Shown here piece by piece: positions 51,216-64,000 of a DNA stretch of 64,000 nucleotides. This DNA comes from an uncultured Alphaproteobacteria bacterium (GTDB lineage Bacteria; Pseudomonadota; Alphaproteobacteria; Rhizobiales; Xanthobacteraceae). Numbering within the stretch: the stretch's first letter is position 1; the number at the start of each line of letters is the position of its first letter. The translations under genes were made by a program, and so were the position numbers. The DNA lies in the NCBI GenBank assembly GCA_963827585.1, contig CAWHCK010000036.1, positions 31,131 to 95,130 on the forward strand, read 5' to 3'. The notes under the pieces were generated by a model. That model did not search any database. It had not been told where the DNA came from and saw nothing but the letters and a program-made list of their open reading frames with translations.

Positions 51216-51440
51216 TCAGCTTTTCCTGATGCGAAACACCAGCACGTCGCCGTCGCGGGTGCTCAACTCGAGCTTGTCGCCGGTCTGGTTGAGGAGGTTC
51301 GGGATGTCGATGGCCGTGAGCGGGTCCGTGCATTCGGCGATCAGCATGTCGCCGGCCTTGAGCCCCGTCAGCGCCTTGCGCGCGCGCAGTGCCGGCAGGG
51401 GACATTTGAGCCCGCGCAAATTGATGGTCTTCTCGGCCAT
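51216..51440 (-). CDS. TusA/SirA-like sulfurtransferase
   Basis: 74 aa with the LKCPLP active-site Cys motif. Confidence 0.8.
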   Translation of the reverse strand: MAEKTINLRGLKCPLPALRARKALTGLKAGDMLIAECTDPLTAIDIPNLLNQTGDKLELSTRDGDVLVFRIRKS

Positions 51441-51529
51441 GTGATCTCGTCGCGTTTACGGGATATTCACCGCTGGCGCCGTTGCGGGACGGTTTCGCGG
51501 GACGACACAATATAATAGTGACACAGGCA

Positions 51530-52645
51530 ATGGTCGTGGAGCCCGACACCGCGCAACGCATCGCCCGGCTGACGCCGCTTGCAGACTTGCTCGCCCGTAT
51601 CGATGAACGGGTCAAGCCGGCGGCGCCGCAGCGGAGCGATCTCGCCGCCGCGGTAGGGCGTATTGTGGCCGAGGACGTCGTCATCCATGCTCCGCTTCCC
51701 GCCGCGGCGCGCGCGCTGTGCGACGGCTGGGCCACGCGATCCGATCTTACCACCGACGCCGGCGCCTATGTCCCGGCGCCGCTTCCTGCCGCCGTGCGGG
51801 TCGACGTCGGGGAGGCCCTCCCGCCCGCTGCCGATGCGGTCGCGCCGCTCGATGCGGTGACGATCCGCGATGGCGTGCCGCACGCTTTGGCCCCGGTCGG
51901 GCCCGGCGAAGGCGTGCTGCCGGCCGGCGCCGATGCCGCGCCTGGCACGACGCTGCTGCAAGCCGGCCGCCGCCTCGGCGGTGCGCAGATCGCGGTGCTC
52001 GCGGCGGCGGGCGTCAGCAGCGTGAGTGTCCGCGTGCCGCGCCTGCGCCTCGTGCCCGCCGGGCCGCGCAGGGATGCCGTGATCGATGCCGCGATCGCGT
52101 GCATCGCCGGCGCCATTGCGTCCGGGGGCGGTGCTGCCGTCATCAGCGCGTCGAACGATCTGGCAAACGCATTCGCCGACGCTGATGCCGTCATTGCCGT
52201 GGGCGGGACCGGCAGCGGCCGCCACGACGCCACCGTGCGAACGCTTGCGTCGCTGGGCGAGGTGCACGTGCACGGGGTCGCCTTGTTGCCCGCAGAGACG
52301 ACGGCATTCGCAACGGTGGGTGCGCGCCCGGTGCTGGCATTGCCGGGGCGGCTCGATGCGGCGCTGGCGGGCTGGCACGTCCTGGGCCAAGTCATGCTCG
52401 CGCGGCTCGCGGGCAGCCGGGAGCCGTTGCGTACTGGAACCGCCAAGCTCACCCACAAGGTGTCGTCGACCGTGGGGCTTGCCGAACTGGTGCCGGTGCG
52501 GTGCGAAGGCCTTTCCGCCACGCCCATAGCCTCGGGCTATGTGCCGCTCGCGGCGCTGGCGCAGGCCAATGGATGGATTTTGATCGCGCCCGAAAGCGAG
52601 GGCTATCCGGCGCATACCGAGGTCGTGATAAGACCTTGGCCATGA
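51530..52645 (+). CDS. MoeA-like molybdopterin molybdotransferase paralogue (divergent)
   Basis: MoeA layout (AVGRIVAEDV..., central MoCF-like VIAVGGTGSG, C-terminal beta domain). TATAAT at 51511-51516. Confidence 0.65.
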   Translation: MVVEPDTAQRIARLTPLADLLARIDERVKPAAPQRSDLAAAVGRIVAEDVVIHAPLPAAARALCDGWATRSDLTTDAGAYVPAPLPAAVRVDVGEALPPAADAVAPLDAVTIRDGVPHALAPVGPGEGVLPAGADAAPGTTLLQAGRRLGGAQIAVLAAAGVSSVSVRVPRLRLVPAGPRRDAVIDAAIACIAGAIASGGGAAVISASNDLANAFADADAVIAVGGTGSGRHDATVRTLASLGEVHVHGVALLPAETTAFATVGARPVLALPGRLDAALAGWHVLGQVMLARLAGSREPLRTGTAKLTHKVSSTVGLAELVPVRCEGLSATPIASGYVPLAALAQANGWILIAPESEGYPAHTEVVIRPWP

Positions 52646-54641
52646 CTGCTCGCTTCGAACCCAAATCCGCTGCGCGCGATCCCGCATCCGATCTCCTCGC
52701 CGCCATCCGCCGCGCCGCGCGCCAGGAGCAATTCCTCGAAGTGGTCTCGGCCGAGGAGGCGCGCGCGCGCTTCACGCGCCGCCTCGATGCTGTCGCCGTT
52801 GCCGGCCGAGACGCGTCGGCTTGGCGACGGCGCTCGGCCGCGTGCTCGCCCACGACGTGGCCGCGCCGATCGACGTGCCGCCGTTCGATCGCGCCAACGT
52901 CGATGGATTTGCGGTGCGCTCCGCCGATACGGCGGGCGCGAGCGACACCGCGCCGCGCCGTTTTCGCCTCAACGGGGAAGTGATCGTCTGCGGGCATGCG
53001 CCGGCGCTCGAAGTCACCGCGGGCTCCGCCACCACGATCGCGACCGGCGGCGTGATCCCGCGCGGCGCCGACGCCGTCGTCATGATCGAGCACACCGAGC
53101 TCATCGACGATGCCCGCGTGCCGGCGATCGATGTGCGCCGCGCTGTCGCTCCCGGGCAGTTCGTGTCCTACGCGGGCTCCGACCTCGCCCGCGGCGAAGT
53201 CGTGCTGCGGCGAAATACCCGCATCTCGTCGCGCGAGATCGGCATGCTGGCGGCCGGCGGCATCGCCGAGATCGAGGTGGTGCGCCGGCCCAAAGTGGCC
53301 GTGCTCTCGACCGGGGATGAGCTGGTGGCGCCGGGACGCGCGCTCGCTCCGGCGCGGGTCTACGACAGCAACGGGGCGATCATCGCGGCGGCGGTGGTGG
53401 AGGCGGGCGGCGAGCCGATCTCCTTCGGCGCATTTCCGGACGATGAGGCGGCGCTCGAGGCGGCCATGCGCCCGGCCCTCGAAACCTGCGACATGGTCGT
53501 GCTCTCCGGCGGCACGTCGAAGGGCGCGGGCGACCTTTCCCACCGCATCGTCTCGAAGCTCGGGGATATCCTCGTCCATGGCGTCGCGCTCAAGCCGGGC
53601 AAGCCGCTCTGCCTGGCGGTGATCGACGGCAAGCCGCTCGCCGTGCTGCCGGGATTTCCCACCTCCGCGATCTTCACCTTCCATGCCTTCGTCGCGCCGG
53701 TGATCCGGGCGCGAGCCGGCCTGCCGCCGGAAGCGGCGCGCAGCATCGAGGCCGACGTGCCGGTGCGCATCGCCTCCGAGCTCGGGCGCAAGGAGTTCGC
53801 GCTCGTTGCGTTGGTGGCGGGTGAGGAGGGGCCGATCGCATTTCCGATCGCCAAGGGCTCGGGCGCGGTGACGAGCTTCTCCCAGGCCGACGGCTTCATC
53901 GAGATCGACGCGCTCGCGGGAGCGCTCGATGCCGGCACCCGCGCGCGCGTGACCTTGATCGGCGAGAGCGCCGCGCTGCCCGACCTCGTGGTCATGGGCA
54001 GCCACTGCGTCGCGCTCGACGTCGTGCTCGGCGCGCTGGCCGAGCGCGCCTTGACCGCGCGCACCATTGCGGTCGGCAGCATGGGCGGGGTGGCGGCAGC
54101 CGAGCGCGGCGAATGCGACCTCGCGCCGGTGCATCTCGTCGATCCCGCGAGCGGCGTCTACAACGCGCACCTGCTGCGGCCTGGCATCGCGCTGGTGAAG
54201 GGCTGGCAGCGCATGCAGGGCTTCGTGCACCGGGCCGATGACCGTCGCTTCGCCGGACGCAGCGCCGCCGACGCGCTCAAAGCTGCGCTCGCGGATCGGA
54301 GCTGCCTGATGGTCAACCGCAATGCCGGCGCCGGCACGCGCGTGCTCATCGACCAGCTGCTCGAGGGGGCACGTCCCGCCGGCTACAGCAATCAGCCGCG
54401 CTCGCACAACGCGGTCGCCGCCGCGGTGGCGCAGGGGCGCGCCGATTGGGGCATCGCGATCGAGTCGGTCGCCCGCCTGTACGGCCTGGGGTTCCTTCCG
54501 ATCGCGCCCGAGGACTACGACTTTCTCCTGGTCGAGAGCCGCCGCGAGCGGCCGGCGGTCGCAGCCTTTCTCGCCGCATTGCGCAACGAGGCGGTGCGCG
54601 AGAAAATCCGCGCGCTCGGCATGCGCCCTGCCGATGCCTGA
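52642..54641 (+). pseudogene. moeA: MoeA fused to a C-terminal PBP-like (putative molybdate/tungstate-binding) domain; N-terminal frame break(s) at 52789-52831
   Basis: MTARFEPKS...FLEVVSAEEARARFTRRLD (ORF 52501 frame) is followed by ALGRVLAHDVAAPIDVPPFDRANVDGFAV... (ORF 52821 frame). The intervening LSPLPAETRRLGD reads best in the third frame. ATGA overlap with the upstream moeA-like gene. Confidence 0.8.
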
Positions 54642-54678: not shown

Positions 54679-55950
54679 TTGCCGTCACTGCTCCTTCTGG
54701 CCGCCGCGCCTGACCTCGCGCAGGCGCAATTGCGCGGCCATGGCGGGCCGGTGCGCGCGCTCGCGATCTCGCCCGACGGCACGCAGGCGATCTCCGGCAG
54801 CTTCGACACGTCGGTGATCCGCTGGTCGCTGCAGAGGAACGCGGCCGAGCAGGTGCTGCGCTTCCATGACGGCGCGGTCAACGCGGCGGTCTTCTTGCCG
54901 GACGGCCGGATCGCGACCAGCGGCGAGGATGCCCGCATCGCGATCTGGCGGCCCGGCGAGGCGCAGCCGTCGATGGTGCTCGAAGGACACAAGGCGCCGG
55001 TGGTCGCGCTGGCCGTATCGCCCGACGGGCGCACGCTCGCGTCCGCGTCCTGGGATCACACCGCGCGGCTGTGGCCGCTCGCCGGCGGCGTGCCGCGGGT
55101 GATCGAGGGCCATGCCCAGAACGTCAACGGCGTCGCGTTCACGCCCGACGGCCGCGCGCTTGTCACCGCGGGCTACGACGCGACGCTTCGCATCTCGCCG
55201 CTCGCCGACGCCGGCGCGCCGATCATCACCACGCTGCCGACGCCGCTCAACACCGTCGCGGTCGCTCCCGACGGCGAGATCGTCACCGCCGGCGCCGACG
55301 GCAAGGTCTATGTCCTCTCGGCCGCGGGCGAGCGCACCGGCGAGATCGAGGCGATGCAGACGCCGCTCATCGCGGTCGCGCTTTCAGGCGACGGCAGGCT
55401 CATCGCCGCCGCCGGCATCCGCGGCTCGGTTGCCATCATCGACCGCGCGTCGCGCAAGCTCGAACGCACGCTGGTCGGGCCGGGGCTGCCGGTATGGTCG
55501 GCTGCGTTCTTCCCGGACGGCCGCACGCTCCTCACCGGCGGCACCGACCGCATGATCCGGCGCTGGGACGCGGTCACCGGCGAGCCGATCGGCAACGTGG
55601 TGATGGGCGCACCCGAAGACCCGCTCGCTCCCTTCGCGGGCGATCCCGGCGCCGAGGTGTTTCGCGCCTGCGTCGCCTGTCACACCTTGAGCGCCGACGA
55701 TGGCGTTCGCGCCGGCCCGACGCTGGCCGGCATTTTCGGGCGCAGGATCGCGACCTTGCCCGGCTACAATTTCTCCGCCGCGCTCAAGCAGCTCGATATC
55801 GTGTGGACGCCGGAGACGGTCTCCAAGCTGTTCGAGGTCGGGCCCATGGCCTACACGCCCGGCACCAAGATGCCGGAGCAGCAGATCGGCTCGGCCGAGG
55901 ACCGCGCGGAGTTGATGAAGTTTCTGGAGAAGGCGACGAAGGCGCAGTGA
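54679..55950 (+). CDS. Periplasmic WD40-repeat protein fused to a C-terminal class I cytochrome c domain
   Basis: Repeated GH..V...A.SPDG units and a C-terminal CVACH heme motif. Leader LLLLAAAPDLAQA. An out-of-frame ATG at 54663 (MFRILVAV) may be the true start if one base is extra near 54688. Confidence 0.75.
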   Translation: MPSLLLLAAAPDLAQAQLRGHGGPVRALAISPDGTQAISGSFDTSVIRWSLQRNAAEQVLRFHDGAVNAAVFLPDGRIATSGEDARIAIWRPGEAQPSMVLEGHKAPVVALAVSPDGRTLASASWDHTARLWPLAGGVPRVIEGHAQNVNGVAFTPDGRALVTAGYDATLRISPLADAGAPIITTLPTPLNTVAVAPDGEIVTAGADGKVYVLSAAGERTGEIEAMQTPLIAVALSGDGRLIAAAGIRGSVAIIDRASRKLERTLVGPGLPVWSAAFFPDGRTLLTGGTDRMIRRWDAVTGEPIGNVVMGAPEDPLAPFAGDPGAEVFRACVACHTLSADDGVRAGPTLAGIFGRRIATLPGYNFSAALKQLDIVWTPETVSKLFEVGPMAYTPGTKMPEQQIGSAEDRAELMKFLEKATKAQ

Positions 55951-55979: not shown

Positions 55980-56882
55980 TCATTTCGTCGCGCGGATCAC
56001 CTCGAGCACGGCGTCGGTCACCGCCTCGGGCACTTCCTGCGGCAGGTTGTGGCCGGCGGTCGGGATCACCCGATGCTGATAGGGGCCGGTAAAGAACGCG
56101 GCCTGCTGCAGCGAGCTCTCCGGCCGCGACAGGCCGCTGCCGCTGCCGTGCAGCACGATGGTCGGCACCGAAATGCGCGGCCTTGCCGCGAGCCGCTGCT
56201 CGATCGCCTCCAGCGCCGGGTCGCCGGCGGCATAGCCGAAGCGGTGACGGTAGGAGTGGATCACGACGTCGACGAAGTCCGGATTGTCGAACGAGACGGC
56301 GGTGCGGTCGTAGGTCGTGTCGTCGAACTGCCAGTTCGGCGACCACAGCCGCCACAACAGCTTGCAGAACTCGTGCCGGTTGGCCTGCAGTCCCGCGCGG
56401 CCGCGCTCGGTGTTGAAGTAGTACTGATACCAGAGCCGGTGCTCCTGGTCCGGCGGCGCGGGTTTGGCCGATCCGGCAATGTCCTGGATGTTGTAGCCAT
56501 TGGCCGAGACCAGGCCGCGCACCTCCTGCGGCCACAGCGCGGCGACGATGCAGGCCGCGCGTCCGCCCCAGTCGTAGCCGGCAAGCACGGGGCGCTGCGC
56601 GCCGAGCCCGTCGATGAGCTCCTTGAGGTCGTTGCCGAGCGCCGCCTGCTGGCCCGAGCGCGGCGTGTCGGGCGCAAGGAAACGCGTGGGACCATAGCCG
56701 CGCAGATACGGCACGATCACCCGGCATCCCGCCGCGACCAGCGCCGGAACCATGGCGTCGTAGGTGCGTGGGTCATAGGGAAATCCGTGCATGAGGAACA
56801 CGGGAATGCCGTCGGCGGCGCCGCTCTCCTCGTAGGCGGTCTCGAGCGCGCTGGTGCGGATACTTTTGAGCGCGGGCGGCAT
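55980..56882 (-). CDS. Alpha/beta hydrolase (epoxide hydrolase / haloalkane dehalogenase-like)
   Basis: HGFP oxyanion motif, nucleophile region GYDWGG, C-terminal His in AGHNLPQE. Confidence 0.75.
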   Translation of the reverse strand: MPPALKSIRTSALETAYEESGAADGIPVFLMHGFPYDPRTYDAMVPALVAAGCRVIVPYLRGYGPTRFLAPDTPRSGQQAALGNDLKELIDGLGAQRPVLAGYDWGGRAACIVAALWPQEVRGLVSANGYNIQDIAGSAKPAPPDQEHRLWYQYYFNTERGRAGLQANRHEFCKLLWRLWSPNWQFDDTTYDRTAVSFDNPDFVDVVIHSYRHRFGYAAGDPALEAIEQRLAARPRISVPTIVLHGSGSGLSRPESSLQQAAFFTGPYQHRVIPTAGHNLPQEVPEAVTDAVLEVIRATK

Positions 56883-56892
56883 GCCTGCGGCC

Positions 56893-58927
56893 TCACGTCT
56901 CCGGCTTGCCGGCGCGCTCACGCTCCTCGCGCTCGCGCAGATAGTCCTCGGTGGTGCGGGCCTTGGGCCGCGGCGGGGCGCCGTAGGGATCGAACTGCTG
57001 CTCGGTGATCGCCACGACCCGGCAGTCCTCGCACATTTTTATCACCTCGAGGCGTTGCGCCGAGTTCTGGAACATCCAGTGCTTGCCTTCGAGCTTGGCG
57101 GCGACGCGCTCGATCGTGCTCTTGACGCCGAACGGCTTGTTGCAGCGGATGCAGTGGAACGGCTCCTCCTGCTTGAGCACCCGCGCCGTGGCAGTCGCGG
57201 CGCGGAAATCGAGCTGCGGCTTGAGCGTGATCACCTTCTCCGGGCAGGTCGCCTTGCACAGCCCGCACTGCACGCAGGCGTCTTCCGCGAAGCGCAGCGT
57301 CGGCCGCTCCGGATTGTCGCCGAGCGCGCCGGTCGGGCAGGCGGAGACGCAGGCAAGGCAGAGTGTGCACCCCTCGACGTTGATCTCGACCGCGCCGAAC
57401 GGCGCGCCTTGCGGCAGCGCGACCACGTCGACGGGCGCCGGGGCCGCGCGCTGCAGCTCCCGCAATGCGAGCCGCATCACGTCGCGCTTGTCTCCGACCG
57501 GCAGGAAGCTCGCGGGGCGCGGGCGGATTCTCCGCTCTCGATCGCGCGCAGCGCCTCGCCGAGGGCGTCGGGATCGTCGGTCTCGATCGTCGCCACGCGC
57601 CCGTTGCCGAAGCCGAGCCCAGAAGGATCGGCTCGGCGAGCGCGAGCGTCTTCGCCAGGCCTGCGATGTCATGGCGAGGCTTTGCGCGCAACAGGAAGCG
57701 CACTGCAGAGGCGCCGTAGGCGAAAGCGGCGGCAATGACCTCAAGACCGACCTGAGTGACTTCGTTGACCGCGACCGGCAGGACGTTCGCGGGCAGGCCG
57801 TCGCCGAAGCGGGCAAGCGCGTCGATCAGCGGCACGCCGTGCGCGTCGTCGTGGATGAGGATGAGCGGCCGCCGTCCTCCCGCTTCGCGATACGCGGTCA
57901 GCAGCGCGCGCAGCTTGCGCATCAGGGCATCCGCCGGCGGCAGCGCATAGGCGGCGGCGCCGGTGGGGCAAACGGCGGCGCACTGTCCGCAGCCCGCACA
58001 GACATAGGCGTCGATGGCGACGTGATCGCCGGCGGGCGCGATCGCGCCGGTCGGGCAGAGGTCGAGGCAGCGCGTGCAGCCGACGATGTTCGAGCGCGAA
58101 TGGGCGCAGAGGTCCGCGGTGAAGGCGACGTAGCGTGGCTTGTCGAAGCTGCCCACGAGGTCGCGCGCGCGGAGCACCGCCTTGAGCACGGCTGCCGGGT
58201 CGGCGGGATCGGCACGCAAATAGCCGTCGCGCAGATCGGATGCGGTAAACAGCGGCGCGCCGCCAGAGATGTCGAGCATGAGGTCGCAGCGCGATACCGC
58301 GCCGTCGCGCGGCGCAGCGAAGCTCAATGTGCCGCGCGAGGACGGGGCGGGCTGCGCGTAGCCATCGACCGTGAGCTCGAACGCACCGAGATGGCCCGTG
58401 GCCGAGCGGATCGCCCCTTTCACCACCGGGAAATCGGTCACCCGCGGCGGGGCCACCTCGGCGGGCGGCCTGATCAGCACCGTCACGTCGAGATGATCCT
58501 TGAGCAGATTGCCGGCCTCGATTGCCTGCTCGTCGCCGCCATAGATCAGGATCACGCCTTCGCTGTTGAAGCTGACGAAGGAAATATCCGGCGCGGGCTC
58601 GGCGGCGGCCGCGAGCAGTGCCGCCATTTTGGGTCCCGCCGCGTCGGCGTCCTTCGACCACCCGGCGGTCTCGCGAATGTTGACGTAGCTGATGTCGGCG
58701 CTGCCGGCTTGTGCCAGTTCCGAGAACAGCGGTGCTTCCTGCGTGCAGCCCACGATCAGCGGCGCTTCGCCCGCGGCCGCTGCGCGGAATTTTTCGAGTT
58801 CCGCCCGGCAGAGCTGGCGCGCGGTCAAGACATTGGCGCCGCGACAGCCGCGTTTCACCGCGGCGCCGTCGAGCGGCATCGTGTCCTCGCACGAGCAGAT
58901 CAAGATGTCTGGCGGCCGATCGGCCAT
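56893..58927 (-). pseudogene. Large multi-[4Fe-4S] ferredoxin-domain protein with a C-terminal Cys4 motif; two single-base frame breaks (about 57618-57621 and 57511-57514)
   Basis: CTRCLDLCP...CAGCGQCAAVCP and CTLCLACVSACP...CVQCGLCKATCP motifs, plus CIRC...CEDC. Three frames join as ...AEPILL|GLGFGNGRVATIETDDPDALGEALRAIESGESARAP|ASFLPVGDKRDV... Confidence 0.8.
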
Positions 58928-59008
58928 TTCGTCTCCGAAATCGATCTGGTCTCGCTGTACATCAAGTTATAATCATTACAAACAGCTATCGCGAGTCCGG
59001 GACCCCAC

Positions 59009-59770
59009 ATGCCGCTGGAACACCGCACGCGCCTGCGCACATCGTCGAAGCCCGCGCTCGACCTGCCGCCGCCGTTCCGGCTGGTGACGCTGCGCGAGGT
59101 CGGCGATGCCTTTGCCCATGCCACCGGCGTCGCGGCAGAGGAGGGGGCCGGCACGCTGGTCCATGTGGGGCGCTTCGATCTTGCGGAATTCGCGGTCGTG
59201 CTCGAACCCGAGGAGCCGCTCAGGACCGCGCGGCGCGCCCTCTATGCCGGTCTTACCGCGCTTGCCGACGCGCTCGCGGTGCACGCTCCGCCCGAGCGGC
59301 CGATCAGCTTCGACTGGCCCGACGCGGTGCGCGTCAATGGCGGGCTCGTGGGCGGGGCGCGCCTCGCCTGGCCGAAGGGCGCCAACGAGAGCGAGCCGCC
59401 GGCATGGCTCGTGTTCGGCGCCATGATCCGCACCGTGGCGATGGGTGACGACGAACCGGGCCTGCGTCCGCTCTCGGCGGCGCTCGAGGAGGAGGGCTTC
59501 GACGATCTCGGCTCCGGGGCGCTGGTGGAGAGCTTCGCCCGCCATCTCATGGTCGCGGTCGACACCTGGCAGGAAAAGGGCTTCGGCGAGATCGCGAAGA
59601 ATTATCTCGCCCGGCTCGCGCCCGAGAGCGGCGTGCGCCGCGACATCGGCGAAACCGGCGATCTTCTGGTGCAGCGAATGGGCAAGGCCGCGGCCGAGCC
59701 GCGCTCGCTCGTGCGCTCGCTCGCGCAGCCGTCGTGGCTCGACCCGTCAACCGGAGGTCCGCGCCGGTGA
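59009..59770 (+). CDS. Biotin/lipoate protein ligase (BPL_LplA_LipB)-like protein, apparently degenerate
   Basis: SFDWPDAVRVNGGLVGG aligns with the BirA KWPND..(K)LAGIL region but has Asp in place of Lys. I found no GRGRxGR loop. Confidence 0.55.
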   Translation: MPLEHRTRLRTSSKPALDLPPPFRLVTLREVGDAFAHATGVAAEEGAGTLVHVGRFDLAEFAVVLEPEEPLRTARRALYAGLTALADALAVHAPPERPISFDWPDAVRVNGGLVGGARLAWPKGANESEPPAWLVFGAMIRTVAMGDDEPGLRPLSAALEEEGFDDLGSGALVESFARHLMVAVDTWQEKGFGEIAKNYLARLAPESGVRRDIGETGDLLVQRMGKAAAEPRSLVRSLAQPSWLDPSTGGPRR

Positions 59771-60309
59771 GGCTTCTGCGCACGATCCGGCTCGACCCAT
59801 CGGATACGTTCGTGTTCGAGCGCGCCGCCGAGCCGGGGGAATGGGCGGTGTCGGGCGCCTTCATGTTCGCCGATGCCGATCCCGATGCGCTCGAGGGCAA
59901 GCCGCGCGCGGCCTTCCGCGGCGGGTTCCTGGGCGTGCCGTCGCTCGGCTGGTCGACCCTGGTGCAGATCGTGGAGGCGAGCGAGGACGACCGCGCTGCG
60001 CTCGTCGATATGCTGGCGCGGCAGCTGCAGGCGCGTCTCGGCGCGCCCGATCTTTCGGCCGCGCGCGCCGCGGCCGAAGAGGAGGTCGCGTTCGCGGCCT
60101 CGCTCTGCGAGCATCCTCACGACACGCTCATTGCCGTGCGCCGGACATTCGAGGACGGTGCGATCCGCGAAGCGTTTCGCACGCTGCGGCCGCGCGGCAC
60201 GCGCAAGCCGATGCGGGCGTTCTCGTTCCTGGAAGTGGACGGCGAGGAGGAGCCGGAGGAGACGGTGGATCTTGCTACGCTGGCGCGGAGCGAGCGGAAG
60301 GACGGGTGA
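59767..60309 (+). CDS. Conserved hypothetical protein (I recall this family being labelled DUF6505; name unverified)
   Basis: The GTG start overlaps the upstream stop (GTGA). 180 aa with an acidic C-terminus. Confidence 0.5.
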   Translation: MRLLRTIRLDPSDTFVFERAAEPGEWAVSGAFMFADADPDALEGKPRAAFRGGFLGVPSLGWSTLVQIVEASEDDRAALVDMLARQLQARLGAPDLSAARAAAEEEVAFAASLCEHPHDTLIAVRRTFEDGAIREAFRTLRPRGTRKPMRAFSFLEVDGEEEPEETVDLATLARSERKDG

Positions 60310-60361
60310 TTGCGATGCTGTGGTATAGAGGCGCGGCAGTATCACGTCGAGGCGCGACCGC

Positions 60362-61369
60362 ATGACGGATTTCTGGCTCTCCTGCGGGCATCATCTGCTC
60401 GATCGCGACGAGGGTGGCGGGCTCGTCGTCACCGACGAGTTCCTCAAGGCCTATCTCGCGCGCCCGGAGCTTGCGCCGCCGCCGGACGCCTGCATCGCCG
60501 AGCGCACCTTGCACGCTGCGCTGCTCACCAATCCGCGCCGACCGGTCGCCGCCTCCGAGATCGCGGCGATCGCGGATGCCGACGCGCGCGAGAACTGGAG
60601 CGTAATGACCGCATTTCGCGACCGCCTCGTCGGTCACAAGACCGTAGAGGCCGCCTATCTCGATCTCGTGCGCCGCGGCGTCGGCGCGACGCCGCCGCTG
60701 TTCATGAACCAGCTCGTGCATGTGATCCTGCGCAACCTGCTCGACGGATGCGAGGACGTCTTCGTGCTGCGGGCGGCCGAGCTGTTCTTCCGGGCGCAAC
60801 GCCTGACCGTGCAGGACGGCTCGCTGATCGCGGCCGACGAGGAGACGGTCGCGGGCGCGCACCCGCAGCAGGTCTCCCCGCTCGTCGCCATGCTGGGCTT
60901 GCCGGCCGCCGGCGAGATCGACGTGCTCAACGACGGCAATGCCGAGACCTATTGGGAGCGCAGCGACATGTTCGACATGGCGCTCGATCTCACGGCCGGG
61001 CGGCGCGGGCTCGACGCGCTCGGCAAGGTGATCGGTCAGTGGATCACGCATCTTCTCTCGGTCGAGGTCGAGATCGAGGCGCTGGTCGAGGCCACCGACG
61101 TCAGTCTCATCTGGTATGTCGGGCTCGATGCGGAGGCCACCGCGATCGGGGATGCGCTGTGGAACGACGAAGAGGTCGACCAGGCGGCGCGCGAGCGCAT
61201 CATCGGGCTCTATCGGCTGACCTTCCGCAACGCCGAGGTCGTCCTGGACAAGGCGAAAGGCGAGCCCATCTATCTGATATTGGCGATGACGGAAGACCGG
61301 ATGCTGCGCATGAAGCCGCAAAATCTCGTGACCGGCCTGCCGATTGCGCATCTCGAGGCGGTGTCGTGA
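60362..61369 (+). CDS. Conserved hypothetical protein (I recall DUF6352; name unverified)
   Basis: 335-aa ORF with protein-like composition and no recognisable catalytic motif. Confidence 0.5.
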   Translation: MTDFWLSCGHHLLDRDEGGGLVVTDEFLKAYLARPELAPPPDACIAERTLHAALLTNPRRPVAASEIAAIADADARENWSVMTAFRDRLVGHKTVEAAYLDLVRRGVGATPPLFMNQLVHVILRNLLDGCEDVFVLRAAELFFRAQRLTVQDGSLIAADEETVAGAHPQQVSPLVAMLGLPAAGEIDVLNDGNAETYWERSDMFDMALDLTAGRRGLDALGKVIGQWITHLLSVEVEIEALVEATDVSLIWYVGLDAEATAIGDALWNDEEVDQAARERIIGLYRLTFRNAEVVLDKAKGEPIYLILAMTEDRMLRMKPQNLVTGLPIAHLEAVS

Positions 61370-61881
61370 ACGTGGCGCCCGCCCTTGGGAAGATTACGGT
61401 CGGCATCGTGGTCGAGCGACGCAAGGCGCAGAGCCCGTGGATCGACTTCACCTGGAAGCCGGTCGCGGCGCTCGCCGGCCTGCCCGATGCGTCGCCATGG
61501 ACCATGCTCGCGCAAGACGGCGATGGCGCGACCTTTTATGCAGGCGCCGCCGAGATCGGGCTCTACCGCACCGAGACCACCAACTATCGCGACAACCTCG
61601 CGTCCGGCGCGCCGCGGCTCTGGGTCGCGCTGCGGCCGACCGGCGTCGAGCCGCCGTACGAGATTTTCGCGGTGACGGCCGATCCGGCCGAAGGTGAAGC
61701 CTGGACCGAGTCGGGCGGCGATCTTGTCGACGTGGTGGCGATGCCGGAGGCGGTGCGTACGGTGATCGACGCCTTCGTGGCCGAGCATCATGTCGAGCGG
61801 CCGTTCCACAAGCGCAAGCGTGAAGCCGCGGATCCGGAGGCGCTGGCGCGACGCGGACCGCTGCAGAAAGGGCGCGAATGA
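61366..61881 (+). CDS. DUF3305-like protein
   Basis: GTGA overlap with the upstream gene. Pattern VGIVVERRKAQSPW...W.PVA...LYR.ET..YR.NL.S..P.LWV.LR...FV..HH.E..F.KRKR as I recall for DUF3305. Confidence 0.6.
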   Translation: MNVAPALGKITVGIVVERRKAQSPWIDFTWKPVAALAGLPDASPWTMLAQDGDGATFYAGAAEIGLYRTETTNYRDNLASGAPRLWVALRPTGVEPPYEIFAVTADPAEGEAWTESGGDLVDVVAMPEAVRTVIDAFVAEHHVERPFHKRKREAADPEALARRGPLQKGRE

Positions 61882-62627
61882 GCGAGCCCGAGAACTTCAT
61901 CGCGCGCTGGTCGCGGCGCAAGCGCGCGGCAGCGGAGGAAGCCGACACGAAAGCTTCCGTCGCGCCGGAGACCGCGGCAGATGGCGCGCGTGCCGGCGAA
62001 GATGAGCGCAAACCAAGCGATGCTCCCAGCGCGCGCAGCGACGCGCGCGAACCGCGCGAGCCCTCGTTCGATCCAACCCAGCTGCCACCGATCGAAACGA
62101 TCACCGCCGAGAGCGACATCCGTGCCTTCCTTGCTCCCGGCGTTCCGCCTGAGCTGACCCGTGCGGCGCTTCGTCGCGCGTGGGCTGCCGATCCCAAGAT
62201 TCGCAACTTCGTCGGCCTTGCCGACTACGACTGGGACTTCAACGCTCCGGGCGCGATCACGGGTTTCGGGTCGCTCGAAATGACCGATGAGCTCCGCCGC
62301 CAGGTCATGCGAATGGTTGGGCGCAGCCTCGGCGCCGACGAGGCCGAGCCGCCCGCTCCCACCTCCACAGCAGTGCCGTCGGAGTCGCCGCCGGTTGAAA
62401 CGTCAATCGAATCGGCTGCCACAACCGGCGAGATGCCCACACAGCAAAGTCAAAGCAGTCGTGGGACATCTCATGACGAGCCGGACGGGCCGGACAATAA
62501 ACCCTACAATTCCGAGCCTTCCGTGCAGCGCGATAAAGAATATGTTGCGACGCAATATAATCCAGCAAAACCCGAAAACGATCAATTGAATGCGAGGCGG
62601 CCGCATGGGCGCGCTTTGCCTAAGTGA
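61878..62627 (+). CDS. DUF3306-like protein with a low-complexity, AT-richer C-terminal extension
   Basis: ATGA overlap. N-terminal FIARWSRRKR and conserved LPPIE.IT.ESD...F...VP..L...ALRR.W..DP.IRNF.GLADYDWDF. Confidence 0.6.
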   Translation: MSEPENFIARWSRRKRAAAEEADTKASVAPETAADGARAGEDERKPSDAPSARSDAREPREPSFDPTQLPPIETITAESDIRAFLAPGVPPELTRAALRRAWAADPKIRNFVGLADYDWDFNAPGAITGFGSLEMTDELRRQVMRMVGRSLGADEAEPPAPTSTAVPSESPPVETSIESAATTGEMPTQQSQSSRGTSHDEPDGPDNKPYNSEPSVQRDKEYVATQYNPAKPENDQLNARRPHGRALPK

Positions 62628-62720
62628 TTACGTGGACTCATAGCCTCGAGCTATTGACCGGAACTCGCCGCCGGCAGTATTTTTCTACAATCGAATTGAA
62701 ATAATAAAGAAAAAGCCCTG

Positions 62721-63524
62721 ATGCGCGATGGCGGTCTTGACGAAGCGATCCGCGTTGCCGGCGGTGTCGGCGCGCTTGCCCGAAAAATTGGCATCTCGCA
62801 GCCGTCGGTCTCGAACTGGTCGCGCATTCCCGCCGAGCGCGTGCTGTCGGTGGAAGCCGCGACCGGCGTGAGCCGTGTCGTTCTGCGGCCCGATCTCTAC
62901 CGCGATCCTTCCGATTTTACCGGCGACGGTGTCGATGTCGGCGATGGCGGTGTCGACGAGGTCGACGCCGCGCGCGCGCAGGAATATGCGCTGCTCTCGG
63001 TGCTGCTCGCGCGCGCCCCCGATGCCGGACTTCTTGCGCGTCTTGCCGCGCTTCGCTGCGATGCGAGCCCGCTCGGACTGGCGCATGCCGGACTCGCTGA
63101 GGCGGCCTCGCGCGCCAAAGTCGAGCGGGTGGAGCGCGAGTATTTCGATCTCTTCATCGGGCTGGGGCGCGGAGAGCTGCTGCCCTACGGATCATACTAC
63201 CTCAGCGGGTTCCTGCACGAGCGGCCGCTCGCGCGCCTGCGCGCGGAGCTCGGCAAGCTCGGCATCGAACGCTCAGTCGGCCAGGCCGAACCCGAAGATC
63301 ATGCGGCGATCCTGTGCGAGATCATGGCGGGGCTAGCGAGCCGCCGCTTCGAGGCTCCTGCCGGCGCCGAGCGCGAATTGTTCGAGCACCATCTCGCTCC
63401 GTGGATCGGCCGCTTCTTCGTCGATCTGGAGCGCGCCGAGGCTGCCGATTTCTACCGGCACGTCGGAACCGTCGGCCGGGTGTTCATGGCCATCGAAACG
63501 GATGCTTTCGTGCTGCCGCCATGA
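62721..63524 (+). CDS. Fusion of a Cro/YdaS-like HTH domain with a TorD/DmsD-family redox-enzyme maturation chaperone
   Basis: N-terminus: GGVGALARKIGISQPSVSNWSRIPAERVLSVEAATGVSRVVLRPDLY. Then a D/G-rich linker, followed by TorD-like EYALLSVLL...EREYFDLFIG...LPYGSYY... Confidence 0.7.
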   Translation: MRDGGLDEAIRVAGGVGALARKIGISQPSVSNWSRIPAERVLSVEAATGVSRVVLRPDLYRDPSDFTGDGVDVGDGGVDEVDAARAQEYALLSVLLARAPDAGLLARLAALRCDASPLGLAHAGLAEAASRAKVERVEREYFDLFIGLGRGELLPYGSYYLSGFLHERPLARLRAELGKLGIERSVGQAEPEDHAAILCEIMAGLASRRFEAPAGAERELFEHHLAPWIGRFFVDLERAEAADFYRHVGTVGRVFMAIETDAFVLPP

Positions 63525-63607
63525 CGGCGGACTGACTGCTGCAACGAGAACAGCAAGTCGCCTGACCGACTTGCCCGAAGACAAGGGGAACACAGGAGGT
63601 AACCGCG

Positions 63608-63814
63608 ATGAAGAAAGAACCCAAAGCAACGCTCGGTCGTCGGGAGTTCCTTCGTACGCTTGGCGCGGGCGCGACGGTCGCGGCGGCGAGTGCCGCGCCG
63701 CTCGCGAGCGACGCGCGCGCCGATACCGAGAGCAACGATGAGAAGCGCAAAGCCCGCTATCGGGAGACCGAAGAAGTGAAGACCTTCTATCGGGTCAACC
63801 GGTATCCGAGCTGA
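63608..63814 (+). CDS. Small twin-arginine-signal protein (formate dehydrogenase region TAT target type)
   Basis: 68 aa: GRREFLRTLGAGATVAAASAAPLA followed by ...KARYRETEEVKTFYRVNRY. Lies immediately upstream of the FDH catalytic subunit. Confidence 0.7.
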   Translation: MKKEPKATLGRREFLRTLGAGATVAAASAAPLASDARADTESNDEKRKARYRETEEVKTFYRVNRYPS

Positions 63815-63825
63815 GGGAGGCACCC

Positions 63826-64000
63826 GTGCTGATCAAGAGAACAGAACGTCAGGCTCGCTGCGGCACGCTCGCCGGCGCGCTGCCAATCCAATCGAACGGC
63901 GGTCTCGATCGCCGCGCGTTCCTGCGCCGCTCCGGCCTCGTCGCCGGCGGCCTCGCCACCCTCGGCGCGCTGCCGCTCGCGAGCGTGCGCAAGGCGGAGG
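63826..64000 (+). CDS. Formate dehydrogenase (FdnG/FdoG-like) catalytic subunit, N-terminal fragment running off the window
   Basis: GTG after GGGAGG. Tat signal LDRRAFLRRSGLVAGGLATLGALPLA. Only about 58 codons are visible, so the family call rests on context and the signal peptide. Confidence 0.55.
   Translation, partial: MLIKRTERQARCGTLAGALPIQSNGGLDRRAFLRRSGLVAGGLATLGALPLASVRKAE

Follow-up and report, generated by a model that had tools for sequence, protein, structure and literature searches.

Enzymes that carry a bis-molybdopterin guanine dinucleotide (bis-MGD) cofactor and are exported by twin-arginine translocation (Tat) depend on cytoplasmic maturation factors, among them NapF and NapD of the Escherichia coli and Rhodobacter Nap systems and FdhD and FdhE, which serve E. 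coli FdnGHI and FdoGHI. NapF is a polyferredoxin and FdhE a cysteine-rich iron protein; these factors are encoded beside their enzyme and act on the catalytic subunit before its export. The same logic, predicted soluble cytoplasmic proteins encoded beside the enzyme, is found in a set of six genes next to a Tat-exported formate dehydrogenase (FDH) in a 64,000-nucleotide (nt) stretch of DNA, hereafter the window, from an uncultured alphaproteobacterium of the Xanthobacteraceae. The set encodes a polyferredoxin-like iron-sulfur (FeS) protein, a biotin protein ligase (BPL)-like protein, and members of the families DUF6505, DUF6352, DUF3305 and DUF3306. Co-encoding and the presence of molybdenum cofactor genes nearby support, with moderate confidence, a reading in which these six proteins form a dedicated cytoplasmic module for the maturation of FDH3-type enzymes before export. 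The differences from the described systems are considerable. The FeS protein is about four times larger than NapF, and its first 270 and central 186 amino acids (aa) match no family in Pfam and no structure in the PDB. Neither NapF/NapD nor FdhD/FdhE offers a counterpart to DUF3305, DUF3306, DUF6505 or DUF6352.

Two described loci come closer. Bay et al. defined a 'DmsD(fdh)' operon class in 2015, in which genes for DUF3305, DUF3306 and a fer4/hybA protein lie upstream of about 60% of dmsD-fdhGHI operons, accompanied by an 'fdh tat' gene (PMC4464133). This is the association of DUF3305, DUF3306 and fer4 with FDH seen in the window; that paper calls the two DUF proteins 'putative membrane proteins', whereas no membrane segment is found here, and it makes no mention of the BPL-like, DUF6505 or DUF6352 proteins and proposes no function. 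The second locus, SO_4503-SO_4511 of Shewanella oneidensis MR-1, encodes FdhD, two conserved hypothetical proteins, an iron-sulfur cluster-binding protein, FdhT, FdhX and FdhA1B1C1 (PMC2535785, PMC13066108). Its published order matches that of contigs from a distant clade, FdhD / DUF3305-DUF3306-FeS-TorD-small Tat-FdhABC, and, to judge by the published annotation and by those contigs, this arrangement has no BPL-like, DUF6505 or DUF6352 gene in the operon and no helix-turn-helix (HTH) on the chaperone. The two hypothetical proteins, SO_4504 and SO_4505, are presumably DUF3305 and DUF3306, given the matching pattern. Shewanella FdhAB, tungsten-supplemented and O2-tolerant, has been purified and solved by electron cryo-microscopy; roles for FdhT and FdhX are conjectured only, and SO_4504-4506 are not discussed (PMC13066108). 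In one Shewanella transcriptome data set SO4504, SO4505, SO4506 and SO4509 group together (PMC2535785).

A literature search over the DUF names, TIGR02811, PF16917, the BPL-like structure 3BFM, the SO_450x loci and maturation found no functional study of these families, no paper mentioning DUF6352, DUF6505 or DUF6494, and none giving a function for PF16917. The original prediction, made from the sequence of the window, had put forward a candidate for an undescribed system, with six proteins of no demonstrated function. The second part holds, but 'undescribed' goes too far: the association was published in 2015, and a crystal structure from the BPL-like family exists. The gene neighbourhood itself is not new; it is functionally unstudied.

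Coordinates refer to the whole window, whose genes were placed with an open reading frame (ORF) map and Pfam and NCBIfam scans of the encoded proteins. The set and its enzyme are laid out as follows.

56893 to 58927, minus strand: polyferredoxin-like FeS protein, 678 aa when intact, frame-broken in the window
58928 to 59008: divergent intergenic region of 81 bp, 48% GC, containing a TATAAT hexamer
59009 to 59770, plus strand: BPL_LplA_LipB_2 protein (PF16917; Pfam 3e-58)
59767 to 60309, plus strand: DUF6505 protein, 180 aa (3e-56; 189.7 bits)
60362 to 61369, plus strand: DUF6352 protein, 335 aa (Pfam 6e-61; 207 bits)
61366 to 61881, plus strand: DUF3305 protein, 171 aa (4e-41; 141 bits)
61878 to 62627, plus strand: DUF3306 protein, 249 aa (4e-27; 95.9 bits)
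62628 to 62720: AT-rich gap of 93 bp, 44% GC, with a sigma-70-like TTGACC-18-TATTTT at 62654-62683
62721 to 63524, plus strand: HTH-TorD/DmsD-family chaperone (FdhT-like), with an N-terminal YdaS/Cro HTH and Nitrate_red_del (7e-30)
63608 to 63814, plus strand: small twin-arginine protein, 68 aa (FdhX-like; TIGR02811 1.3e-16)
63826 to 64000, plus strand: N-terminus of FdhA, the FDH catalytic subunit, with its own Tat motif; the window end truncates the gene

The FeS gene, on the minus strand, is divergent across 81 bp from a run of five plus-strand genes. The map and scans reproduce the order and strands given in the original prediction, and its family calls (BPL/LplA-like, DUF3305-like, DUF3306-like, HTH-TorD, small Tat protein) are borne out by the scores: DUF6505, DUF6352, DUF3305 and DUF3306 match over the full model and well above Pfam gathering cut-offs of 23.9-25 bits. 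The three start/stop overlaps that it listed lie at 59767-59770 (GTGA), 61366-61369 (GTGA) and 61878-61881 (ATGA). Where it implied none, at the DUF6505-DUF6352 junction, the window has a 52-nt gap. Its two AT-rich regions stand out against a mean GC content of 67% for the window.

The downstream genes point to the type of enzyme. The chaperone, which also matches the TorD and DmsD NCBIfam models below their cut-offs, is encoded ahead of the catalytic subunit, as in FDH3/FdhABC loci. Between the two sits the small Tat protein, which scores 60.7 against a cut-off of 48.45 for TIGR02811 ('formate dehydrogenase region TAT target'), and DUF3305, DUF3306 and a polyferredoxin lie alongside, as expected of an FDH3 locus. 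The window covers the first 58 codons of fdhA, from 63826, with the twin-arginine motif DRRAFLRRSG, in agreement with the Tat-exported subunit predicted there. On contig L002, which is 98.7% identical to the window over a shared 13.6 kb (175 mismatches), FdhA is complete at 977 aa with Molybdop_Fe4S4, Molybdopterin and Molydop_binding domains, and a Ni_hydr_CYTB gene then follows; FdhB was located by tblastn in other loci. The Sinorhizobium meliloti homologue is named fdh3B in RefSeq and has MobA, FdhD, MoeA-like genes and an ABC transporter nearby. The window probably holds the accessory half of an FDH3/FdhABC-type locus for a periplasmic formate dehydrogenase with a tungsten (W)- or molybdenum (Mo)-bis-pyranopterin guanine dinucleotide (bis-PGD) cofactor.

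Very strong synteny links the set to this enzyme. A profile scan with DUF6352, taking one genome per GTDB species and mapping neighbours by tblastn, gave 80 loci, nearly all titled Alphaproteobacteria, of which 54 anchored on DUF6352 have full flanks. The FeS protein, DUF3305, DUF3306, TorD, FdhA, FdhB and cytochrome b are present in all 54, the BPL-like protein in 50 and DUF6505 in 48. The order is nearly invariant: a WD40-cytochrome c gene; FeS on the opposite strand; BPL, DUF6505, DUF6352, DUF3305 and DUF3306; then TorD, the small Tat protein, FdhA, FdhB and cytochrome b, often followed in loci of close relatives by MobB and MoeA. These loci span Xanthobacteraceae, Bradyrhizobium, Methylobacterium, Phreatobacter, Bosea, Microvirga and Mesorhizobium, and a Sinorhizobium plasmid (L087) keeps the same order. 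FdhA stays within 10 kb even where the locus is rearranged. The arrangement is beyond chance and recurs in every related genome locus examined. The DUF6352 family alone numbers 1229 clusters (50% identity) and occurs in at least 591 GTDB species; the window set is one unexceptional instance of a gene cluster spread over hundreds of species.

Junctions between the genes are conserved as well. Overlaps of 4 nt join BPL to DUF6505 in 60 of 67 loci, DUF6505 to DUF6352 in 55 of 69, DUF6352 to DUF3305 in 53 of 78 and DUF3305 to DUF3306 in 40 of 52, in keeping with the translational coupling that had been proposed and with one co-translated operon. At the DUF3306-TorD junction, by contrast, more than 20 nt separate the genes in all 43 loci assessed. 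Because the overlaps are conserved while this junction is always gapped, two operons are supported, with the gap at 62628-62720 dividing the accessory operon from the TorD-fdh operon.

More distant loci show which parts of the set are constant. On Rhodobacterales plasmids an FeS-DUF6494-Mrp/ApbC-BPL-DUF6505 operon is divergent from DUF3305-DUF3306-TorD-FdhX-FdhABC, and DUF6352 is absent. In distant relatives of DUF6352 (34-37% identity) FDH is still surrounded by the same families: in L094 and L088, DUF3305-DUF3306-FeS-TorD-small Tat-FdhABC is divergent from DUF6505-DUF6352, while L092 reads FeS-TorD-MobA-DUF6352. Fourteen metagenome contigs were anchored on a distant DUF3305, and all those long enough read FdhD / DUF3305-DUF3306-FeS-TorD-small Tat-FdhA. 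In this distant clade DUF3305 and DUF3306 lie upstream of TorD-FdhX-FdhA on the same strand, packed as closely as a single operon would be. The core is DUF3305 and DUF3306, usually with the FeS protein. The original prediction had treated the six genes as one complex, to be abandoned if homologues proved not to be syntenic with molybdoenzyme genes. Synteny with FdhA/B/C and TorD in 54 of 54 loci favours the idea, while the set is not indivisible, as BPL-like, DUF6505 and DUF6352 come and go.

A second line of evidence comes from cofactor genes. FdhD, MobA, MobB, MoeA and TusA lie inside the loci, and the Mrp/ApbC iron-sulfur carrier ATPase is part of the FeS-BPL-DUF6505 operon on Roseobacter-type plasmids. 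NCBIfam NF011058 is a curated two-domain model of MobA plus DUF3305; MobA matches its positions 8-209 (5e-53) and the window DUF3305 its C-terminal half, positions 213-368 (9e-30). A third line is location. None of the six proteins has a 19-residue stretch at membrane-helix hydropathy, the highest value in the FeS protein being 1.59, with no segment of 1.6 or above. The published description of DUF3305 and DUF3306 as membrane proteins is unsupported by hydropathy, and the DUF3305 model is a soluble alpha/beta protein. The six are predicted to be soluble and cytoplasmic, as had been proposed for them, which fits a role before export. A function in pre-export maturation is suggested because these proteins are soluble and, in distantly related Proteobacteria, co-encoded with a Tat-exported FDH and TorD, amid MobA, MobB, MoeA, FdhD and TusA.

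The sequences of DUF6352, DUF3305 and DUF3306 give few further clues. In the family alignment DUF6352 shows clustered charged residues that never vary and, at the C-terminus, the motif KPQNLLxNLPL; its AlphaFold2 (AF2) model is of high quality, with a predicted local distance difference test score (pLDDT) of 92.6 and a predicted template modelling score (pTM) of 0.90. DUF3305 is modelled with confidence (pLDDT 86.4) as a beta-rich alpha/beta protein and has a basic KRKRDR tail behind its beta-rich core. Foldseek searches of the PDB with both models gave no hit at E<0.5, with TM scores of about 0.1-0.2, and none at E<1 for DUF6352; profile searches of PDB sequences with either family returned nothing significant. 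DUF3306 begins with a conserved basic F.xRWSRRK peptide, continues through a long variable linker of low hydropathy, rich in acidic residues and proline, and ends in a conserved domain of some 60 aa, with the motif R.HG.ALP at the C-terminus.

Several observations weigh against the maturation module. The function of all six families is argued from guilt by association, and the lack of fold relatives for DUF6352 and DUF3305 means that no structural pointer to cofactor binding exists. A genuine role in electron transfer would account equally well for the four or more Fe-S clusters. The FeS gene would be inactive in the window strain should both of its frameshifts, described below, be real. The MobA-DUF3305 fusion comes solely from NF011058, a curated 'exception' model that probably covers a narrow clade, and no fused ORF was seen in the plasmid collection searched with a chimeric query. 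An apparent extension of this kind in S. medicae proved spurious, MobA there being a plain 207-aa ORF. Azospirillum brasilense (L095) has only BPL-DUF3305-DUF3306 ahead of TorD-FDH, with no FeS match in the 12 kb of flank retrieved to either side, and in A. lipoferum and A. ramasamyi a DUF3305-DUF3306 pair has no FDH within 10-12 kb. Because of these Azospirillum exceptions the set is modular and need not act solely on the adjacent enzyme. The orphan pairs (L089 9890-11063, L096 11884-13072) have no other molybdoenzyme gene within 10-12 kb either; their neighbours include a phytochelatin synthase-like gene and TonB/ExbBD.

The same exceptions lend something to a different explanation, a general module for handling the Mo/W-bis-PGD cofactor or its metal, for instance in W/Mo selection or in cofactor storage and transfer, that would serve several molybdoenzymes in trans and lie beside FDH by way of a molybdenum cofactor (Moco) island. 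The orphan pairs on two Azospirillum plasmids favour it, and the MobA-DUF3305 model, the adjacency of DUF6352 and MobA in L092, and the nearby MoeA-PBP_like fusions, ABC transporter genes, MobB and TusA also speak for it. It is nevertheless unlikely, for wherever the flanks are long enough the FDH3-type enzyme is the sole molybdoenzyme nearby, about 110 loci showed no other gene for a bis-PGD enzyme, and in the distant clade DUF3305 and DUF3306 share their tight same-strand run with TorD-FdhX-FdhA.

The condition of the FeS gene in the window raises the question of whether the locus is intact. The span 56893-58927 is 2035 nt, not a multiple of 3, and its reading frame shifts twice. Compared with L002 the window is one base short in homopolymer runs near 57620-57622 and 57520-57524; the L002 gene is 99.4% identical and encodes an intact 678-aa protein. 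The FeS protein of roughly 680 aa in the original prediction is the length found in L002, and in the window it is broken over three frames. These shifts could be real, and the locus a partly decayed pseudogene cluster in the window strain, a view compatible with any of the other readings: there are two separate 1-nt deletions, 98 nt apart, and the C-terminal third of the gene is thrown out of frame. Decay is quite unlikely, as both deletions sit in homopolymer runs and every other gene of the set is intact in the window. The deletions are probably assembly errors and not biology, because L002 carries indels too, in the neighbouring WD40 gene, and frameshifts abound in the sister assemblies L005, L111 and L112, as is typical of metagenomes assembled from long reads. 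Further single-base homopolymer deletions separate the window from L002 at 52317 and 54897, while L002 has three single-base deletions of its own, none in a homopolymer run. Both assemblies appear to carry indel errors, and other genes of the window may contain similar ones.

Across 69 homologues the FeS protein is highly conserved in its cysteines. Five N-terminal cysteines are about 93% conserved; four ferredoxin-type [4Fe-4S] motifs, spread over two domains, and a C-terminal CxxC...CxxC are conserved at 99% or above. Three of the motifs are canonical CxxCxxCxxxCP and one reads C...CxxCxxxCP. Matches in Pfam or the PDB are confined to the ferredoxin domains, the relatives being FwdF, MvhB, the HdrA C-terminal domain and HycF. 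The N-terminus, MADRPPDILICSCEDT..., has no twin-arginine motif. A score of 32.6 bits (7e-8) against the 102.2 cut-off of TIGR00402 places the protein outside NapF. An internal duplication of the N-terminal and central domains was rejected (hhalign probability 0.2%), and comparison of the C-terminal four-cysteine region with FdhE gave no similarity beyond chance zinc-finger matches.

Two apparent fusions of the FeS protein to DUF6352 (P0176 and P0248) would have been a Rosetta stone for this gene set, and at the DNA level they are frameshift artefacts. In the other frame the DNA encodes a normal FeS C-terminus, ...RTTDDYLREREADRDRPPSKGKPH, which terminates 4 nt ahead of the DUF6352 ATG, leaving only same-strand adjacency as evidence. 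Both, at 10001-11722 in L111 and 10001-11488 in L112, stem from the assembly of metagenomes from long reads. Before function is read from fusions in protein collections of this origin, the underlying DNA needs to be checked.

So many cysteine motifs invite the view that the polyferredoxin and its partners are a working cytoplasmic redox module, exchanging electrons with FDH through the membrane cytochrome b or feeding them to a cytoplasmic acceptor. The four ferredoxin-type motifs and two further cysteine clusters would suit such a module, as would the best solved relatives, the electron-wire polyferredoxins FwdF and MvhB and the ferredoxin domains of HdrA and HycF, and the protein's presence in all 54 loci. 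The view is improbable given the rest of the set: no membrane anchor or transmembrane segment occurs in any of the six, and the partners are genes of Moco insertion (FdhD, MobA) and the Fe-S carrier ApbC, not respiratory subunits. Cytochrome b of the FdnI type, as in FdnGHI, reduces quinone, and is not known to have a cytoplasmic polyferredoxin partner.

The BPL-like protein is homologous over almost its full length to PDB entry 3BFM (profile E 2e-55), a structural-genomics entry deposited as 'Biotin protein ligase-like protein of unknown function', which belongs to the Roseobacter-type branch, a branch about 30% identical to the window protein. In the ligases BirA, LplA and LipB the catalytic lysine lies on a K-x-x-G strand (BirA K183 or K187, LplA K133, LipB K135). 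The window protein shares with these enzymes a fold family (the clan of PF16917) and a WPxD-type strand. In a weak alignment with BirA (E ~0.4), anchored on the WPxD motif, the lysine position is occupied by Leu in the window and by Leu, Ala, Arg or Cys in homologues. No lysine is invariant in an alignment of 21 family members, the glycine-rich ATP/biotin loop is unrecognisable there, and the window protein contains no cysteine at all, which excludes the acyl-enzyme cysteine of LipB and LipL. Lacking the catalytic lysine, the protein is probably not a ligase. It is more probably a pseudo-ligase that binds a ligand or serves as a scaffold.

Its neighbour DUF6505 has four invariant residues, G24, G30, K45 and A99, of which K45 is the sole invariant lysine. 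There is no conserved cysteine in the DUF6505 alignment, and a profile search of PDB sequences found nothing significant. In L086 the distant DUF6352 is preceded by a 156-aa gene, which was rejected as a DUF6505 (20% identity). It is very improbable that the BPL-like protein and DUF6505, possibly with DUF6352, are a ligase and acceptor that place a carboxylate cofactor on DUF6505 Lys45 as a new prosthetic-group carrier for FDH biogenesis: the BPL fold is solid, the two genes overlap as described and are paired in the Roseobacter operon, and the acceptor has its one invariant lysine, yet the putative ligase lacks the lysine, the thioester cysteine and the nucleotide loop, and four loci have DUF6352, DUF3305, DUF3306 and FDH without a BPL-like gene.

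The chaperone also varies between lineages. Its YdaS/Cro HTH, the N-terminal 60 aa (62721-62900), occurs only in Hyphomicrobiales-type loci, while Roseobacter and distant loci have a plain TorD of about 200 aa. This fusion suggests that the HTH-TorD chaperone doubles as a transcriptional regulator, possibly acting on the AT-rich region directly ahead of its gene.

Two genes between the Moco genes and the set remain to be placed.

54679 to 55950, plus strand: WD40 beta-propeller and c-type cytochrome (CxxCH; Pfam WD40 3e-49; CVACH in the translation)
55980 to 56921, minus strand: alpha/beta hydrolase, between the WD40-cytochrome c gene and the FeS gene

The first, missing from the gene list of the original prediction, is a conserved neighbour, present in 44 of the 54 full-flank loci, and the window copy has a hydrophobic N-terminal leader. 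In Salipiger (L091 17120-18418) a homologue of the WD40 protein is annotated as a c-type cytochrome and lies directly downstream of FdhC, the cytochrome b subunit. The WD40-cytochrome c protein is probably a periplasmic component of the FDH3 system and may be a redox partner of this FDH there. The hydrolase was rejected as a member of the set, as it occurs in one of the 54 loci, that of the window lineage.

Further upstream, the Moco island runs on over 51219-54641, with TusA (51219-51440, minus strand) and MoeA-like and MoeA-PBP_like genes. The latter two are called as one 1036-aa fusion in L002 and are two genes in S. meliloti; indels at 52317, 52789 and 52813 separate the window from L002 in this region. 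In several lineages the FeS gene is accompanied by one for a DUF6494 protein of 67 aa (L087 6974-7180, L112 11508-11714) and, on Roseobacter plasmids, by Mrp/NBP35 (ApbC) as well (L090 6363-7640, L091 6402-7661). Neither DUF6494 nor Mrp/ApbC was detected in the window by tblastn.

A dedicated maturation module, the reading favoured here, allows a division of labour to be sketched, in which the individual roles are conjecture. The DUF3305 and DUF3306 core would act where the finished bis-MGD cofactor leaves MobA and FdhD for the TorD-type chaperone and apo-FdhA. The 678-aa polyferredoxin would be a NapF-like cytoplasmic redox partner that keeps the cofactor or the Fe-S clusters reduced, or aids their loading into FdhA/FdhB. 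The BPL-fold protein would be a non-catalytic ligand-binding or scaffold subunit and, with DUF6505 and DUF6352, a lineage-variable add-on. A bolder proposal, tentative and with the balance against it, is that the set is a new W/Mo cofactor-insertion machine, in which DUF3305, DUF3306 and the polyferredoxin form a redox-gated complex for hand-over or checking between MobA/FdhD and TorD, joined by a small-molecule-binding or protein-modification branch of BPL pseudo-ligase, DUF6505 and DUF6352. If true, that branch would be without parallel in known maturation pathways.

Metal-dependent formate dehydrogenases rank among the best CO2-reducing catalysts. One account describes their heterologous production as limited by maturation of the catalytic subunit (PMC13396061). 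Three to six unstudied cytoplasmic genes conserved beside the FDH3 class are obvious candidates for the missing assembly factors, and tractable carriers of the set exist in Shewanella oneidensis, Sinorhizobium meliloti, Methylorubrum and Bradyrhizobium. Since the predicted folds of DUF6352 and DUF3305 are without solved relatives, their study could reveal new biochemistry in the handling of the W/Mo cofactor.

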